DNA of 64,000 bases, from assembly GCA_965207885.1 (NCBI GenBank), contig OZ242311.1, forward strand, positions 2,464,001 through 2,528,000. The letters run 5' to 3'. The translations under genes were made by a program, and so were the position numbers. This document shows, in pieces, positions 1,554 through 17,799 of this stretch. The stretch is from Candidatus Latescibacterota bacterium (GTDB lineage: Bacteria > Latescibacterota > UBA2968). Below the pieces are notes generated by a model. It was not told the origin of the DNA and did not search any database. It saw only the letters and a program-made list of their open reading frames with translations. How positions within the stretch are numbered: the stretch's first letter is position 1; every line of letters starts with the position of its first letter.

Positions 1554-1696
1554 CGATGATCAAGCAATATCGCGGACGATGCTTCAAAGAATCGCGATCG
1601 CATTGAATCAAAGGGGCGAGATTAATTTTGTACCAGTGGAAGGGCAACAAGAGGTCGTGTAAAAGTAGCGGGATGAATAGCGGAATCTGTCCGTAG

Positions 1697-1757
1697 AAAC
1701 GGGGTAACTCCACTCTCGTGTTGGGTTGGATTTACCCCGTTTGGATTTACCCCGTTT
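1697..1757. repeat. 15-16 bp motif TGGATTTACCCCGTTT: two tandem copies plus one inverted copy
   Basis: TTGGATTTACCCCGT at 1726-1740 and 1741-1755; AAACGGGGTAACTCCA at 1697-1712 is the reverse complement with 1 mismatch. Confidence 0.85.
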
Positions 1758-1919
1758 TTAGTGTATAATTTAGAAGGTTCACCTCAATCATCCTGTGCCA
1801 TCAGTTTTTCATAGGTGATGGGTAATTGAAATGTTATACATCAAATCGGGTCAAGTCCATGTTGATAGACTTTGACCTTTGGATAGGTGGAGCAACAAAT
1901 TTTTGACTGGAGGCAGAAC

Positions 1920-2111: not shown

Positions 2112-2497
2112 TGCGTTATATCAGTCTGAGTGAAGTGTTAGAACTTCATCGGCGTATTATTGAAGAAAGTGGCGGATCGACGGGGTTGCGTGACCTCGGC
2201 GGATTGGAATCAGCCATCACCCAGCCCCGTATGACGTTTGGAGGTCGTGATCTTTACCCGACTCTGATTGAAAAAGCAGCCGCATTGTGTTTTTCTCTGG
2301 TTCAAAATCACCCGTTCATTGATGGAAACAAGCGAGTAGGGCATGCCGCTATGGAAGTCATGCTAATTCTGAATGGGTATGAAATTTATGCTCCCGTAGA
2401 TGATCAGGAACAGGTCATTTTAGAACTTGCTTCAGGGGATGTTTCTCGTGATAAACTGATCGAATGGTTGACAGATCCTATTGATGAAGTGAGATAA
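2111..2497 (+). CDS. doc: Type II TA death-on-curing (Doc) family toxin
   Basis: HPFIDGNKRVG Doc motif; GLRDLGGLESA and LYPTLIEKAAAL segments. Confidence 0.9.
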   Translation: MRYISLSEVLELHRRIIEESGGSTGLRDLGGLESAITQPRMTFGGRDLYPTLIEKAAALCFSLVQNHPFIDGNKRVGHAAMEVMLILNGYEIYAPVDDQEQVILELASGDVSRDKLIEWLTDPIDEVR

Positions 2498-3189
2498 TGG
2501 CAAAACAAAAGGCCGTAAGTGTTGCTTTGTGGGAGCAAAAACTCACGACCTTTGAAGAATTATATAATGAAGCCACACCAGAGGAACGGAAAGACCTCTT
2601 AAGACTGCATATCAACCACCTGGTCTATACCCCTGACGGGATTCAACTCGCCTTATTTGATCCCAGTAACGAAGCAGATAGGCCCAAAGTTCAGCGAGAT
2701 GGCACGTCTGGCTCCCCAACCATTCCATCGACTGAACTTTTCTGTGTGTGGGATCACTTCCCCATCCATCACTTCCGCAGGAACAAGAAGCCCATCATCG
2801 CAATCGGTCATAAGCCACAAAAACAATTCGTTACTCAAAAACTGCACCATCCCAACTATCTCAAAAGAGCCACGTATTATCACGAACTTCTTGATAAGGG
2901 CTATGTTCAATCTCAGACCGAACTTGCCAAACAGGTGGGAATTTCGAGGACCAAAACCCGATTGATTCTACGGTTGCTCAAACTGGATGAGGAAATTAAA
3001 GACTTTATCCTGAGCTTGGATGATTCAGACCCAAGGCTGAGTGCTGTGGCTGTCTATCGGTTACAACCATTACTCCAGCTTAAAAGCAAGGAGAGACAAA
3101 GAAGGAAATTTTGGCAGATGATCGAGGACCAATATCCAGGGCAAAGCACCTGCTATGAGAAGATTGCGCTATCAAGATTTGATAGCTAA
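2497..3189 (+). CDS. Probable large serine recombinase C-terminal remnant fused to an HTH domain
   Basis: N-terminal EATPEERKDLLRLHINHLVYTPDGIQLAL resembles LSR C-termini; later LLDKGYVQSQTELAKQVGISRTKTRLILRLLKL is an HTH of the type found beside LSRs; TAATG coupling to doc. Confidence 0.5.
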   Translation: MAKQKAVSVALWEQKLTTFEELYNEATPEERKDLLRLHINHLVYTPDGIQLALFDPSNEADRPKVQRDGTSGSPTIPSTELFCVWDHFPIHHFRRNKKPIIAIGHKPQKQFVTQKLHHPNYLKRATYYHELLDKGYVQSQTELAKQVGISRTKTRLILRLLKLDEEIKDFILSLDDSDPRLSAVAVYRLQPLLQLKSKERQRRKFWQMIEDQYPGQSTCYEKIALSRFDS

Positions 3190-3285
3190 ATAAAATAGGC
3201 GATAATTTCTCTGTAACCTTAGACTCGATTCGTTTTGGTTTATAACAGCATAAAGGGTGCTTTCTGCACTATCCACGAAAACGGG

Positions 3286-3606
3286 TCAATTCCACCACCT
3301 TTGAAAATCATCTATCCGCTTATCCATCTGCTTTACTTCTCCTTTTGTTTCAGCCATTTCATTCGCCCCTTCCACCAGCCTTTTAGCAAACTCTCTGATT
3401 TCTGGCTTATTGGTGTCCTGGAATATTTTAAGGATTTCAGATGTTTGTGTTATATGTGTGAAATTGTTATTTATTTCTTCTATCTGCCCTTTTAGGAGGT
3501 CATTTTGTTCTCGCAGGAGATTAACTGTTTCATCATTCTTTTCATTTATTTGCCGAGATAGTGCAATAAATTCCTCAATGGCTTCGTCTAATCCTTCTTT
3601 GTCCAT
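3286..3606 (-). CDS. Hypothetical coiled-coil protein (106 aa, MDKEGLDEAIEEF...)
   Basis: Heptad-rich ORF directly downstream of the structured RNA leader; ATG at 3606. Confidence 0.6.
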   Translation of the reverse strand: MDKEGLDEAIEEFIALSRQINEKNDETVNLLREQNDLLKGQIEEINNNFTHITQTSEILKIFQDTNKPEIREFAKRLVEGANEMAETKGEVKQMDKRIDDFQRWWN

Positions 3607-3629
3607 ATTGTCACGTCTTTCTAAATTTA

Positions 3630-3850
3630 TGTGAATCGTGTGAAAAAGACAGGCGAAAAAAAACGCAGTTATCTTTGCGTGGTGGTGACACCTTGCAACC
3701 GCAAGGTGTCGGGCAGAGGTTACCACTCGCGCAGAGATACTGCGGGAAATCCCACGTATTTACCAGAGATCGGGTAGCTAATCCGTTCTTATATCTGGTT
3801 CTTGTATTTGGCGGGCTACCCGACCTATCGGGCTGCCCAAGTGGTAACCG
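3630..3850 (-). ncRNA. Putative structured RNA/attenuator, unit 2
   Basis: Stems 3718-3727/3840-3849, 3770-3778/3815-3823, 3687-3696/3701-3710 (perfect 10 bp); terminator-like 3663-3680 followed by a U-run. Confidence 0.5.
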
Positions 3851-3856
3851 TATTCG

Positions 3857-3991
3857 TGTGAATCGTGTGAAAATAAAAAAGCCCTGACGGTATCCAGTCA
3901 ACATGCCGAATACCATGAGGGTATTCAGGGTTGTCCGCCAGGGCTAAAAAGTATATTCGTATGTCGATGCAATCGGCTGTTGACTGAATAC
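3857..3991 (-). ncRNA. Putative c4/CI-like structured RNA, unit 1
   Basis: 3890-3903 pairs with 3978-3991; the competing stem 3880-3890/3935-3945 is followed by a U-run; internal hairpin 3908-3926; begins right after a sigma70 promoter. Confidence 0.55.
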
Positions 3992-3995
3992 GCAA

Positions 3996-4024
3996 AATTT
4001 AATGTATCCAACATCGAAGGTCAA
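3996..4024 (-). promoter_or_regulatory. sigma70 promoter TTGACC-N17-TAAATT
   Basis: -35 at 4019-4024, -10 at 3996-4001; predicted start site ~3990 coincides with the first RNA stem. Confidence 0.65.
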
Positions 4025-4070
4025 TATCTTTTACACTTCTTTACAAACTACCCGCCTTTATTGCCACGGG

Positions 4071-4098
4071 AGTATAAAACAAATGCCGCGTATGTCAA
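4071..4098 (-). promoter_or_regulatory. sigma70 promoter TTGACA-N16-TATACT
   Basis: Near-consensus hexamers with a 16-nt spacer, upstream of the previous promoter. Confidence 0.55.
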
Positions 4099-4118
4099 AT
4101 GAGAGACAGACATCTTTG

Positions 4119-4445
4119 TTACAAAAGTTTTATGATGCCAGTTATTAGGGCAGAGGCGCCAAGAATTGCCATCACAATTTTAAATGTAAAATCTCGCCTA
4201 TCTCTGGTTTCTTCTTTTACCTTTTTCTCATAATTTTCAATGGCTTCTTCTGCTGTTTTAATATCCCTGACGGTGTTTGTCACTCCATCAAGGTTTTCTT
4301 CTATACCATCAAGCCTACTGTCAAGTTTGCGCAACCACTCCGTAACCATCCAAAATGTCTGTTCGTTGTCTTCAAATCCGGCTCCGGGAAACGAAGGTTG
4401 TTCACCGGGGGTTGTGGAGCCGCCGAGGTTTTTTCTATTTGTCAT
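4119..4445 (-). CDS. Hypothetical coiled-coil protein with a C-terminal transmembrane helix
   Basis: Coiled coil followed by FTFKIVMAILGASALITGIIKLL; ATGA overlap with the upstream stop. Confidence 0.7.
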   Translation of the reverse strand: MTNRKNLGGSTTPGEQPSFPGAGFEDNEQTFWMVTEWLRKLDSRLDGIEENLDGVTNTVRDIKTAEEAIENYEKKVKEETRDRRDFTFKIVMAILGASALITGIIKLL

Positions 4446-4756
4446 TGTTGAACCCCCAGCCACTCCCAAAGGTCTCGGCTGGCATAGCCATAATATCCCC
4501 CACTAACGCGCACAATGAACCCTGATCCTATATCGCTACCGTCTCCATATCCAAGTTCTTCGCTTAACTCCCGCGCAGTTCCTGAGTATGTGACAAAATA
4601 AATGTCTGGCGCATGTACATCACACACCTGCACAGGGGGCGAAGGGGCCATGCTCTTGCCATTTTGACTCACCAGATTCTGAATCTTTGTTTGCAATGCC
4701 AGAGCTTCATCGTCGTCAATTTGCAATGGGACGATAGCGTACACCATATTAATCAC
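4442..4756 (-). CDS. Hypothetical small alpha/beta protein (possibly ferredoxin-like fold)
   Basis: Conserved-looking C-terminus GYYGYASRDLWEWL; GTGA and ATGA overlaps on both sides. Confidence 0.65.
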   Translation of the reverse strand: MINMVYAIVPLQIDDDEALALQTKIQNLVSQNGKSMAPSPPVQVCDVHAPDIYFVTYSGTARELSEELGYGDGSDIGSGFIVRVSGGYYGYASRDLWEWLGVQQ

Positions 4757-5370: not shown

Positions 5371-5412
5371 CAAAAATAGCCCGGTTTCGGGAGGGAAACC
5401 GGGCTATTTTTG
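5371..5412. terminator. Perfect 18-bp hairpin with A/T tails (bidirectional terminator-like)
   Basis: CAAAAATAGCCCGGTTTC-GGGAGG-GAAACCGGGCTATTTTTG. Confidence 0.7.
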
Positions 5413-5541
5413 TGCCCTATAAGTGCTGGCAGGTACTGTTTGCCGAAGTACTCGCCCGAGTTGTTTTTAATTCAAAAAGAAGTACATTAGGTACTTGACT
5501 GTGCCAGCAATTCATTTGGTCACTATCCTACATAATCTCCT

Positions 5542-5573
5542 AAAAAAAAGCCCCCTTTGAGGAGGCTTTTTTT
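5542..5573. terminator. Intrinsic terminator downstream of tRNA-Asn
   Basis: AAAAAAAAGCCCCC-TTTGA-GGAGGCTTTTTTT. Confidence 0.75.
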
Positions 5574-5665
5574 CATCTCGTTGTTATCTTCTACTTTTCT
5601 GTTTGGTTCGGTTAACCAAATGAAAACTTTTGAAGATAGATCAAATTTTAGCGAGAAGATATTCT

Positions 5666-14832: not shown

Positions 14833-17799
14833 ATGTCGCAAATGTTTTTGAACAAAGGAATAGCGTTTATCGCTGCCCTTGTGTTGCTGCTCTGCGTGGG
14901 GCAAGCCTCTGCTGCTTCCAATGCGAATAATGCTGCGGCTACTGTTGCGCAGTCTGCAGATGCGGATCTCAACGGCGATGGGATGGTTGGTTTTGCTGAT
15001 TTTTTGATCTTTGCAGGCATGTTTGGGGCAAATCAAGGCGATGATAGGTATGACGCTCGAGCCGATCTGGATGGGGATGGTGCGATAGGTTTTGGCGATT
15101 TTTTGATCTTTGCCAATGCCTTTGGCACATCCGGCTCTGGCGGCGGTGGTAGCCCTGATCTCATTGTTATAGCGCCTTCGGTAAGCGACACCCTGCTGAC
15201 GCCTGGGCAGATGTTCACGCTGAATGTGACAGTGCGCAACCATGGGAATGCACAAGCCGCTGAGACGACGCTGACGTATTACCTCTCGACCGACGCGGCG
15301 ATATCGACGAGTGATACGGAGGTTGGCACGGATGCGGTGGGTGGCCTTGCCGCTTCTGGAACCAGTGATAAATCGATCGGTTTGAATGCCCCATCGAGTG
15401 CTGGCATGTACTATTACGGTGCCTGTGTGGCGAGTGTCAGTGGTGAGAGCAATGCGGATAACAACTGCTCAGGTGGGGTGCGCGTCACGGTCAGCGATGG
15501 TGGAGAGGGTGGTCAAGGCAGTGAGACGTCCTTTGATCTGGATAACAACAGCAATCCGCAGGATATCCTCTATGCCAATGACCGATTCTATGTGCTTGAT
15601 CGGGAGGATGCAAGGGTCTATGGTTACGAGAGTGACGGTCAGCGCGATTCGGGAGTAAGCTTCCGTCTGAATAGCAGTTCTCCGTCGAGTATCACCTATG
15701 CCAACGACCGGTTCTATGTGGTTGATGAAGAGGATGATAAGGTCTATGGGTATGGGAGTGATGGTCAGCGCGATGCGGCAGCAGACTTCGATCTTGGTAT
15801 CAGTGATCCGAGAGGGATCACCTTTGCTAATGACCGATTCTATGTGGTCAATGACGGGGATGATAAGGTTTATGGGTATGGGAGTGATGGTCAGCGCGAT
15901 TCGGATGCAGACTTTGATCTGGGTATCAGCGATCCGAGAGGGATCACCTTTGCCAATGACCGATTCTATGTGGTCAATGACGGGGATGATAGGATCTATG
16001 TGTACACGAATTCTGGTCAGCGCGATGCGGCTGCAGGCTTCCGTTTGTTTACCGGTGATCCGAGGGGTATCACCTTTGCCAATAACCGATTCTATGTGGT
16101 TGATTTCTGGAATGATAAAGTCTATGGACACGGGAGTGACGGGCGGCGTGATACGGGTGCGGACTTCGATCTGCATAGCAACAATTCTCCACAGGCTGTC
16201 ACCTATGCCAACAACCGATTCTATGTGCTCGACGTTGATGATGGAAAGATCTATGGGTATGGGAATGATGGTCAGCGCGATGCGGCTGCAGACTTCGATC
16301 TGGCTAATAGTGATCCGTTTAGTATTACCTATGCCAACGACCGATTCTATGTGCTTGATCCCTCGGATGTAAAGGTCTATGCGTACACGAGTTCTGGTCA
16401 GCGTGTTGAGGATGCAGACTTCGATCTGGCTGGCAACAACAATGATCCGTCGGGTATCACCTATGCCAACGACCAATTCTATGTGCCTGATGCCGAAGAT
16501 GAAAAGGTTTATGTGTACACGATTGCTGGTCAGCGTGTTGCGATTGCAGATTTCGATCTGGCTAATACTTCTCCGTCGGGTATCGCCTATTTCGACAATC
16601 TATTCTATGTGGTTGATGCCGCAGATGAAAAGGTTTATGTGTACACGGGTGCTGGTCAGCGTGTTGGGGCTGCGGACTTTGATGTGGCTATTAGTGATCC
16701 GAGAGGTATCGTCTATGCCAACGATCAATTCTATGTGCTTGAAGTGGAAGGTGCAAAGGTTCATTGGTACGCGATTGCCGACCCCACTCCTGATCTAATT
16801 ATTGTATCACCGTCGGCGAGCAATGACAGCCCGAATACCGGCGAGTCCTTCAGTTTGAGCGTTGCGGTTCGCAACCAGGGTGCGGGTTCTTCGGCTGCGA
16901 CGTCCTTGCGCTACTACCTCTCGACCGATGATTCGATTACAACGAGTGATACAGAGGTTGGCACGGGTGCCATAGGCAATCTCACTGCGGGAGTCGCGAG
17001 TAACCAGTCAATTGACTTGAATGCGCCATCGAGTGTGGGGATATACTACTACGGCGCGTGTGTCCAAAGCGTCAGTGGAGAGAGCAATACCGATAACAAC
17101 TGCTCGAATGGGGTACGTGTCTCGACTGCAAACTTCGCTCTGGATGGCGAAAATACTGATCCGGAAGGTATCGTCTATGCCAATAACCGATTCTATGTGG
17201 TTGATGCCAGGGATGGAAAGGTCTATGCGTACACGAGTGCTGGTCAGCGCGATGCAGCAGCAGACTTTGCTCTGGATAGCAACAACACTGCGCCGGAAGG
17301 TATCACCTATGCCGACAACCGATTCTATGTGATTGATCGGGGAAATGTGTCTGATCGGGGAGATGAAAAGGTCTATGCGTACACGAGTGCTGGTCAGCGC
17401 GATGCGGCAGCAGACTTCACTCTGGATAGCGACAACAGTGCGCCAGCGACTATTACCTATGCCAACGACCGATTCTATGTGGCTGATTTTTCGACTGTAA
17501 AGGTCTATGCGTACACGGTTTCTGGTCAGCGTGTTGCGGATGCAGACTTCGATCTGGCTGAGGACAACATTGATCCGTTTGGTATTGCCTATGCCAATGA
17601 CCGATTCTATGTGGCTAATAACTCTGATAGCGAGACTAATAAGGTCTATGCGTACACAGTTTCTGGTCAGCGTGATGAGGATGCGGACTTCGATCTGGTC
17701 AGCAGTGATCCGTTTGGTATCATCTATGCCAGCGACCGATTCTATGTGGTTGATGGCGGGGATAATGCGGTCTATGCGTACACGAGTGCTGGACAATAA
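14833..17799 (+). CDS. Secreted repeat protein: signal peptide, dockerin/EF-hand-like pair, two CARDB-like Ig domains, 10+5 beta-propeller-type repeats
   Basis: ADLNGDGMVGFADFLIFA twice; PDLIV...NNCS twice; ~42-aa repeat DFDL..SDP.GITYANDRFYVVD..D.KVYAY...GQR. Confidence 0.8.
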   Translation: MSQMFLNKGIAFIAALVLLLCVGQASAASNANNAAATVAQSADADLNGDGMVGFADFLIFAGMFGANQGDDRYDARADLDGDGAIGFGDFLIFANAFGTSGSGGGGSPDLIVIAPSVSDTLLTPGQMFTLNVTVRNHGNAQAAETTLTYYLSTDAAISTSDTEVGTDAVGGLAASGTSDKSIGLNAPSSAGMYYYGACVASVSGESNADNNCSGGVRVTVSDGGEGGQGSETSFDLDNNSNPQDILYANDRFYVLDREDARVYGYESDGQRDSGVSFRLNSSSPSSITYANDRFYVVDEEDDKVYGYGSDGQRDAAADFDLGISDPRGITFANDRFYVVNDGDDKVYGYGSDGQRDSDADFDLGISDPRGITFANDRFYVVNDGDDRIYVYTNSGQRDAAAGFRLFTGDPRGITFANNRFYVVDFWNDKVYGHGSDGRRDTGADFDLHSNNSPQAVTYANNRFYVLDVDDGKIYGYGNDGQRDAAADFDLANSDPFSITYANDRFYVLDPSDVKVYAYTSSGQRVEDADFDLAGNNNDPSGITYANDQFYVPDAEDEKVYVYTIAGQRVAIADFDLANTSPSGIAYFDNLFYVVDAADEKVYVYTGAGQRVGAADFDVAISDPRGIVYANDQFYVLEVEGAKVHWYAIADPTPDLIIVSPSASNDSPNTGESFSLSVAVRNQGAGSSAATSLRYYLSTDDSITTSDTEVGTGAIGNLTAGVASNQSIDLNAPSSVGIYYYGACVQSVSGESNTDNNCSNGVRVSTANFALDGENTDPEGIVYANNRFYVVDARDGKVYAYTSAGQRDAAADFALDSNNTAPEGITYADNRFYVIDRGNVSDRGDEKVYAYTSAGQRDAAADFTLDSDNSAPATITYANDRFYVADFSTVKVYAYTVSGQRVADADFDLAEDNIDPFGIAYANDRFYVANNSDSETNKVYAYTVSGQRDEDADFDLVSSDPFGIIYASDRFYVVDGGDNAVYAYTSAGQ
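15530..16780 (+). repeat. Ten ~126-bp coding tandem repeats (five more at ~17130-17796)
   Basis: Near-identical units, e.g. 15781-15906 versus 15907 onward; recurring GACCGATTCTATGTG. Confidence 0.85.

Follow-up and report, generated by a model that had tools for sequence, protein, structure and literature searches.

A probable undescribed non-coding RNA region ahead of a broken membrane-protein gene in a Candidatus Latescibacterota bacterium

Our analysis concerns a 64,000-nt stretch of a Candidatus Latescibacterota genome (contig OZ242311.1, positions 2,464,001 to 2,528,000; hereafter, the window) and, within it, a 512-nt gap on the minus strand (4118-3607) that separates the gene of a 108-aa coiled-coil protein from a 106-aa open reading frame (ORF). 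Read along the minus strand, on which all of the features of the gap are described below, this gap holds a consensus-like promoter (P1), a second promoter-like sequence (P2), a structured segment closed by a terminator-like element (unit 1), a 17-nt sequence, a larger structured segment also closed by a stem and U-run (unit 2), and a second copy of the 17-mer, after which the ORF begins. A first-pass annotation had viewed this arrangement as tandem promoters driving two stacked switch-like RNAs, each ending in the same tag, ahead of an orphan coiled-coil gene. In the present study, we established computationally the elements themselves, their statistical excess, their folding energies, the lack of any known RNA family, and, for the ORF, both its family and its truncation. 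The structured non-coding region in this gap is real, statistically exceptional, and without a known family, and it is probably an undescribed non-coding RNA region ahead of a broken membrane-protein gene.

The excess of structure was evident by several measures. When ungapped Watson-Crick stems of at least 10 bp with no more than one mismatch were counted, the gap yielded seven, compared to a shuffle mean of 1.39 and a maximum of five, with 0 of 300 dinucleotide shuffles reaching seven. Likewise, its longest exact direct repeat measures 17 nt vs. a mean of 8.4 nt and a maximum of 12 nt in 300 shuffles. The predicted fold of unit 1 has an energy of -39.4 kcal/mol (z -3.5), that of unit 2 together with its tag -86.9 kcal/mol (z -5.9), and that of the whole leader -157.7 kcal/mol (z -6.6), and in none of these cases did any shuffle fold as low. 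We also ranked 200-nt segments from both strands of the 64 kb by their energies regressed on GC content, and the segment 3651-3850 occupied ranks 1 and 2 of 2,554, with a tRNA-Ser pair behind it. Units 1 and 2 have only the 17-nt repeat in common and are otherwise unrelated in sequence. None of the ORFs in the gap resembles a real gene, and small hydrophobic toxin ORFs were not found there.

P1 (4098-4071; TTGACA-16-TATACT) matches the consensus at 11 of 12 positions and is the only site on either strand of the 64 kb to reach at least 11/12, while just 6 of 1000 shuffled gaps hold such a site. It begins 20 nt past the stop codon of the 108-aa gene, with no terminator between the two, and its transcripts should start near 4064. 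P2 (4024-3996; TTGACC-17-TAAATT) matches at 9 of 12 positions and might, if it is used at all, start transcripts near 3989 at the first arm of the long-range helix of unit 1. P1 and P2 are the only sigma-70-type sites of at least 9/12 on the minus strand of the gap. As there is none between terminator 1 and unit 2, the latter would be reached by read-through.

Unit 1 combines two interleaved helices, which were found exactly where they had been proposed. The first of these, here termed S1, joins the 5’ arm GUAUUCAGUCAACA (3991-3978) to 3903-3890 and pairs at 14 of 14 positions, 13 of them Watson-Crick and one G-U. The second is the 11-bp stem (3945-3935/3890-3880) of terminator-like element 1 (3945-3880), which is followed by UUUUUUAUUUU at 3879-3870 and has inside it an inner hairpin of 9 bp (about 3933-3906) as well as the 3’ arm of S1 (3903-3890). 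The two helices have no bases in common, and their connecting loops measure 32, 31, and 0 nt. In the P1 transcript, the terminator stem has equilibrium pair probabilities of 0.83-0.98, and the terminator form is favored over the S1 form by 4.9 kcal/mol (-56.0 vs. -51.1 kcal/mol). For a transcript that begins at 4000, just upstream of the P2 start, the difference is 2.1 kcal/mol (-38.3 vs. -36.2 kcal/mol). For a transcript that has only grown to 3890 and has yet to acquire the 3’ arm of the terminator, the minimum-energy fold is S1. S1 and the terminator stem could also coexist as a pseudoknot, a form that the folding program is unable to represent. Unit 1 may be either a near-isoenergetic switch or a pseudoknotted terminator. 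In addition, GUAUUC or its complement GAAUAC recurs at 3991, 3930, 3913, and 3855 and, in slightly altered form, at 3960 and 3895, and thus several more pairings are available, including one of 10 bp with no more than one mismatch (3993-3984/3928-3919). We also considered attenuation by a leader peptide, as a 29-codon ORF (4014-3925) runs across both S1 and the first arm of the terminator stem, but it was rejected because this ORF has no ribosome-binding site.

The first copy of the 17-mer, TTTTCACACGATTCACA (3873-3857), overlaps terminator 1, as its first four T residues form the end of the terminator U-tract. The second copy (3646-3630) is located 8 nt past the U8 run of unit 2 and 23 nt ahead of the ATG of the ORF. 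Each contains the direct repeat TTCACA-N3-TTCACA. The exactness of this 17-nt repeat had been recognized in the first-pass annotation and is confirmed here; with their flanks, the copies are identical at 20 of 22 positions, and they bracket unit 2 precisely. That annotation also had each of the units ending in a tag, which turned out differently. Because both 17-mers lie past the U-runs, at distances of 0 and 8 nt, terminated RNAs would be devoid of the tag, and only read-through RNA or the DNA itself would carry it. The complementarity between the 17-mer and the leader is unusually low, with 194-199 of 200 shuffled tags pairing at least as well. Therefore, the 17-mer would be expected to remain unpaired, as suits a site of docking or cleavage, and an antisense partner of the P4 type becomes less likely. 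Similarly, no inverted copy of the 17-mer is present in the window at ≤3 mismatches. A third, degenerate tag inside the ORF (3462-3448) was discarded as a chance occurrence (6 matches vs. 6.16 expected), and a reading of the tag as a DnaA box is weak, since the match to the consensus is perfect in copy 2 only, and such a match is found at 11 sites in the window vs. 5.1 expected.

Unit 2 differs from unit 1 in its architecture. Its core (3856-3711), which overlaps the top-ranked segment of the window, is predicted to fold as a three-way junction with a GC content of ~0.53 vs. 0.40-0.44 around it. The outer helix (helix P1; 3849-3833/3734-3718) extends over 17 positions, comprising 15 Watson-Crick pairs, one G-U pair, and one G-G mismatch, and has pair probabilities of about 1.0. 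Helix P2 is a 12-bp helix (3826-3815/3778-3767) that closes an A-rich loop region (3814-3779), and helix P3 is a short hairpin (about 3759-3739). The core is followed by a perfect 10-bp hairpin (3710-3687; GACACCUUGC-GGUU-GCAAGGUGUC) and then by ACCACCA. Viewed post hoc, this hairpin and its ACCACCA resemble a minihelix with an NCCA tail; both P4 CI and P1 c4 have been described as substrates of RNase P. Last in the unit is terminator 2 (3680-3655), in which a 5-bp ACGCA/UGCGU stem (3680-3663) with an 8-nt loop precedes the U8 run, and the pair probabilities of this stem are 0.87-1.0. Thus, both units are closed by a stem and U-run on the minus strand (11 bp with UUUUUUAUUUU and 5 bp with U8), as had been noted previously, and the outer stem, inner stem, and hairpin of unit 2 are likewise all present. 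What could not be maintained is the proposal that the two units have the same non-nested topology. This is true of unit 1, whereas unit 2 is nested: its non-nested A:A’ pairing (GGGCAG at 3838-3833 with CUGCCC at 3716-3711) costs 14.7 kcal/mol to force and has an ensemble probability of 0. Even the best antiterminator-like alternative (3739-3730/3679-3670) costs 7.7 kcal/mol. Given the cost of these alternatives, unit 2 has one stable nested fold and is not switch-like.

The 106-aa ORF (3606-3286) is present as originally described and has a Shine-Dalgarno sequence that is weak relative to the ribosome-binding sites of the upstream genes. It had been considered an orphan; however, we identified three close relatives of 128-132 aa with 52-58% identity, and a profile search of 1.84 billion representatives returned 12 proteins at E ≤0.001. 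The family is characterized by the motif MAETKG..QMDKRID and a C-terminal hydrophobic helix. Most of the full-length relatives that were aligned have this membrane helix, while the window copy does not. Homology extends only to 3295, and the remainder does not occur anywhere else in the window. Judged from its sequence, the ORF is a truncated relic of a rare coiled-coil membrane-protein family rather than an orphan. An AlphaFold2 model of the relative P0002 consists of two helices (residues 5-57 and 63-127; pLDDT 75). Five of 14 family members weakly match the Pfam family XhlA (PF10779; best E 1.1e-5), while the window ORF itself has no XhlA match among 20 families at E ≤1, so the sequences hint at a resemblance to XhlA and not at membership. 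A cluster named XhlA is also among the nearest named clusters in the Atlas (score 0.84), which can be taken as a lead only. A sequence profile search of the PDB with the family found nothing below E 0.1, and a Foldseek search against BFVD had 0 matches at E ≤0.001 among the 467 listed. Among the papers listed by our literature search, none joined XhlA and RNA-motif terms.

No Rfam family matches 3607-4118, either at the gathering threshold or at E ≤10. A permissive scan of 3200-4500 on both strands (E ≤10) gave five weak matches, none of them to c4, and the c4 families that the first-pass annotation had suggested as a check (C4, c4-2, and c4-a1b1) have no match in the RNA region at that threshold. 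One of the five, to Proteo-phage-1 (4488-4418, minus strand), is the sole weak match close to the RNA region; it lies within the upstream operon, where it spans the junction of the 101-aa and 108-aa genes and covers the point at which translation of the 108-aa protein begins. With 26.1 bits vs. a gathering score of 42 (E 0.033-0.11), it is probably due to chance. When we searched for pairing targets, the start region of the ORF was paired at least as well by 95 of 100 shuffles of unit 1 and by 100 of 100 shuffles of unit 2, and among 10 neighboring start regions or segments per unit, none reached z -2. Using blastn, 3600-4100 has 0 matches in 50,697 phage records or in plasmids, and P0002 likewise had no tblastn match in either the phages or the plasmids. 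A profile search of genome contigs with the 4- and 14-sequence protein alignments produced 189 and 29 pattern matches, respectively, of which 0 were confirmed.

The gap is part of a low-GC stretch (0.40-0.45 vs. ~0.52 beyond) that begins at the 3’ side of a minus-strand tRNA-Asn gene (5741-5666), continues as far as the left edge of the window, and looks like a decayed mobile or defense island. Directly upstream of the gap is a three-gene operon (5295-4119, minus strand) with overlapping stop and start codons and without a terminator of its own ahead of P1. Its first gene (5295-4753) encodes a 180-aa protein that matches the N-terminal part of the PADLOC candidate PDC-S54 (E 3.2e-24), with the match confined to profile positions 92-205 of 410. 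The second (4747-4442) encodes a 101-aa protein, and the third (4445-4119) encodes the 108-aa protein, which combines a coiled coil with a C-terminal membrane helix and has weak PHROG matches to holin (E 7e-4) and hemolysin (E 5e-3). Distant plasmid homologues of the 180-aa protein are single proteins of 408 and 453 aa, and the C-terminal half seems to have been replaced here by the 101-aa and 108-aa proteins. Possibly, the operon is a PDC-S54 variant with a membrane effector. We rejected a direct equivalence between these two proteins and the absent C-terminal half of PDC-S54-type proteins (best E 0.008 over 30 residues), as we did the notion that the 108-aa protein is a paralogue of the ORF family (no BLASTP alignment; hhalign probability 0.8%). 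None of the papers listed by our literature search used the term PDC-S54. The 180-aa and 108-aa proteins have no relatives other than P0006 and P0018 (83% and 91% identity, respectively), both of which are listed with a longest contig of 63,806 nt, while the relatives of the 106-aa ORF are on other contigs. This indicates that the operon and the XhlA-like gene are separate modules. Between the tRNA-Asn gene and the operon, there are also two strong minus-strand hairpins with T-runs (5371-5436 and 5541-5642), one of which is bidirectional. Their weak, sub-threshold Rfam matches to Thr_leader and Phe_leader most likely reflect terminator shape alone.

On the other side of the ORF, the island continues with plus-strand genes. 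A 505-aa Fic-domain protein (36-1553) is a full-length match to the PADLOC candidate PDC-S24 (E 9.8e-185) and is followed at its 3’ side by an antitoxin and Doc pair (1887-2497). Overlapping the Doc stop codon is the start of a 230-aa ORF (2497-3189), which joins a segment resembling the C-terminus of serine recombinases (PHROG integrase/recombinase matches) to a ParB helix-turn-helix domain. The end of this ORF is convergent with that of the truncated XhlA-like ORF at a distance of ~100 nt, which points to a rearrangement in which the latter lost its 3’ end. With a truncated ORF, a recombinase/ParB fusion, and modules that are unlinked in relatives, the island is mosaic and decayed. Between the Fic gene and the antitoxin gene (1694-1760, plus strand), we observed an exact 15-nt tandem duplication of TTGGATTTACCCCGT (1726-1740 and 1741-1755). 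By pairing with 1694-1712, each of the two copies can create a terminator-like hairpin 3’ of the Fic gene and directly upstream of a promoter-like sequence, TGTATAAT, for the antitoxin/Doc operon. This is the second exact repeat within an intergenic gap of the same island. Further along the window, a 988-aa protein (14833-17799, plus strand) has a partial match to the NCBIfam contractile-injection-system family CIS12 (E 5e-27), far below the family cut-off. The host has a large (Bacillus-type) signal recognition particle (SRP) RNA that adjoins tadA, dnaX, and recR.

The reading that we favor, tentatively and at somewhat less than an even chance, is that the gap acts as a serial two-terminator RNA gate, or encodes a small RNA with a read-through isoform, ahead of a now-broken gene for a small membrane protein of an XhlA-like, holin-like, and potentially lethal kind. 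We infer that the gap is transcribed from its minus strand, that the two elements terminate transcription, that read-through is gated, and that the 17-mers have a role in it. RNA polymerase would start at P1 near 4064 and possibly also at P2. While unit 1 is being made, the 14-bp long-range helix S1 would form first, and the 11-bp terminator stem would then either replace it or stack upon it as a pseudoknot. Most transcripts would stop at the U-tract near 3873 to yield an RNA of ~190 nt (~115 nt from P2). Those that escape would pass the first 17-mer into unit 2 and form a rigid ~200-nt three-way-junction domain, followed by the hairpin and the weak terminator. Only RNA that passes both terminators would reach the second 17-mer and the presumably poorly translated ORF. 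The single-stranded 17-mers would be the most likely docking sites in such read-through RNA, and the docking factor, which may be a protein or an RNA encoded elsewhere, would determine whether read-through, processing, or decay follows. The gated gene in this genome has lost its membrane helix, and the gate would now guard a relic. The two-stage attenuator of the first-pass annotation is therefore retained in part: a promoter, two structured and terminator-closed segments in series before a small gene, and the helices of unit 1 all stand, whereas the switch in unit 2 does not.

A number of observations weigh against this reading. P2 is no better than chance, as 81 sites of at least 9/12 occur in the window and 99 of 1000 shuffled gaps hold two of them; the tandem promoters that had been proposed are both in place, but only P1 is exceptional. 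The interior of terminator 1 is unusually large (44 nt), and the stem of terminator 2 is only 5 bp. As the upstream operon has no terminator itself, terminator 1 may do no more than mark its 3’ end, and the RNA may belong to the operon, to the ORF, or to neither of these modules. There is no obvious sensor in unit 2, and a gate leaves its elaborate fold unexplained. The two strands are about equal in how well they fold, each adopting a structure of its own, so the assignment to the minus strand depends upon just P1 and the T-runs; the two stem and T-run ends are terminator-like on the minus strand only. Since the ORF is truncated, its regulation cannot be under selection now. Finally, the case is built upon a single sequence for which no related DNA was found.

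Alternatively, the units would be stand-alone small RNA genes, with unit 1, and unit 2 via read-through or processing, acting in trans or binding protein, and with the truncated ORF being an unrelated relic. We consider this rather unlikely, and we give a similarly limited weight to its corollary that the targets lie elsewhere, such as an invading phage or a host or defense protein. A strong promoter and terminators with discrete ends are what small RNA genes would have, and the rigid, exceptionally stable unit 2 with its large A-rich loop is closer in appearance to a scaffold or decoy than to a sensor. It is also consistent with such genes that the RNA elements and both 17-mers have remained intact next to a broken ORF, and that the island carries the defense candidates PDC-S24 (the Fic protein) and PDC-S54 (the 180-aa protein, which is only similar to it). 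However, neither unit has significant complementarity to the neighboring start regions, as no z value reached -2, unit 2 lacks a promoter of its own, no Rfam family matches, and no related DNA was found that would support this reading.

The precise bracketing of unit 2 by the 17-mers raises another, still less probable explanation, in which the feature is one of the DNA rather than of RNA. The 210-bp unit 2 and one 17-mer would have been inserted or recombined between 17-bp repeats that resemble a target duplication or an attachment core, or else the palindromes and TTCACA repeats would be what is left of an origin, a single-strand origin, or a transfer origin from the degraded mobile element. 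Besides the exact repeats, which extend to 20/22 with their flanks, this explanation has in its favor that unit 2 departs from its surroundings in GC content, that both strands fold equally, as is expected for DNA palindromes, and that the surrounding island is mosaic and decayed with modules unlinked in relatives. Moreover, removal of unit 2 and one repeat leaves behind a simple arrangement of promoter, unit 1, terminator, and ORF leader. Conversely, the 64 kb contain no other copy of unit 2 or any part of it, its ends have no terminal inverted repeats, and a repeat of 17 bp is longer than usual target duplications. The T-runs that follow the stems are strand-specific and lie downstream of the best promoter of the window, and, as regards an origin, the DnaA-box consensus is perfect in only one of the two 17-mers and over-frequent in the window at large. 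Least likely is an antisense immunity of the P1/P7 c4 or P4 CI type, in which a processed leader RNA would pair with repeated targets in the same transcript to block translation or cause termination: direct repeats do flank a structured RNA here, as seqA and seqC flank P4 CI (PMC4825925), and the leader does precede a small gene in a mobile island, but this model, which the first-pass annotation had entertained, is disfavored by the lack of any Rfam family at E ≤10, of a leader complement to the 17-mer, of an inverted 17-mer, of better-than-shuffled complementarity to the ORF start, and of blastn matches among the phage records.

If the RNAs of the serial two-terminator gate are real, they would constitute an undescribed and unusually elaborate RNA control region, with a knotted or bistable terminator, a three-way-junction RNA, and a common single-stranded tag, situated in an island of defense-candidate genes before a membrane protein of a cell-killing kind. 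It would provide another example of a toxic gene gated by terminators in series and might also supply Rfam with a new family. The fact that the guarded gene is already broken in this genome does limit what the locus alone can teach. A much bolder possibility, which we regard as quite improbable, is that units 1 and 2 are the founding members of undescribed RNA classes belonging to a defense or abortive-infection module, in effect an RNA-gated cell suicide. Unit 1, as a bistable or pseudoknotted terminator, would sense a phage- or stress-derived factor, unit 2 would serve as a rigid scaffold or decoy, and one RNA-binding protein would dock on the 17-mers and license read-through into a lethal XhlA-like effector.

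Lastly, we compared the gap to systems that it resembles in part. In P1/P7 c4, loop sequences are complementary to the ribosome-binding region of the downstream gene (PMC12197685). The gap is similar in that a small structured RNA lies upstream of, and on the same strand as, the gene it would control; it differs in having no Rfam match, loops that are not complementary to the region where ribosomes would bind the ORF, and a downstream gene that is no antirepressor. In P4, the seqA and seqC repeats are complementary to a sequence within the processed CI RNA (PMC4825925). Direct repeats on either side of a structured leader RNA are common to both cases, and the outcome in P4 is control of termination, but nothing in the leader here complements the 17-mer. 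IsrK of Gifsy-1 is documented as a terminated prophage short RNA with a read-through isoform (PMC4825925). It resembles the gap RNA in having its own terminator, with some transcripts reading through to a long isoform that includes downstream genes, as well as processing products, and it differs in acting in trans by base pairing on its own long isoform, for which we found no such complementarity here. There is no sequence or Rfam relationship between IsrK and the gap RNA.

In lambdoid late control, PR’ produces a short terminated 6S RNA, and tR’ is located ahead of the lysis genes. The likeness to the gap consists of a strong, constitutive-looking promoter, a short intrinsically terminated RNA, membrane proteins of a lysis kind, and a requirement for read-through, while the differences are that two serial terminators are found here, with a large three-way-junction RNA between them, and that the downstream gene is truncated. 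Lambdoid late genes are controlled by the Q antiterminator (PMC4825925). No Q-like gene or Q-binding site was identified here, and the host differs in having a large (Bacillus-type) SRP RNA. Riboswitches and attenuators pair an intrinsic terminator with a mutually exclusive helix of comparable stability. Unit 1 approaches such leaders in that its interleaved helices are close in energy and the non-terminator helix comes first; however, these helices share no bases and could coexist, and unit 2 has no viable alternative fold. We also recognized no ligand pocket, known aptamer, or leader peptide with a ribosome-binding site. Type III toxin-antitoxin systems (ToxIN-like) have tandem near-identical RNA repeats and a weak terminator followed by an endoribonuclease toxin gene, and the gap was rejected as one of these because only a 17-nt repeat is common to its units, the downstream gene is a helical membrane-protein relic, and there is no PADLOC toxin model match. 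For the downstream gene, the comparison is with XhlA of Bacillus prophage lysis modules. Although the ORF family has its own motif, and the window copy has neither the membrane helix nor a PF10779 match, the family is like XhlA in that its proteins are small and consist of a long helical region at the N-terminus and a single membrane helix at the C-terminus.

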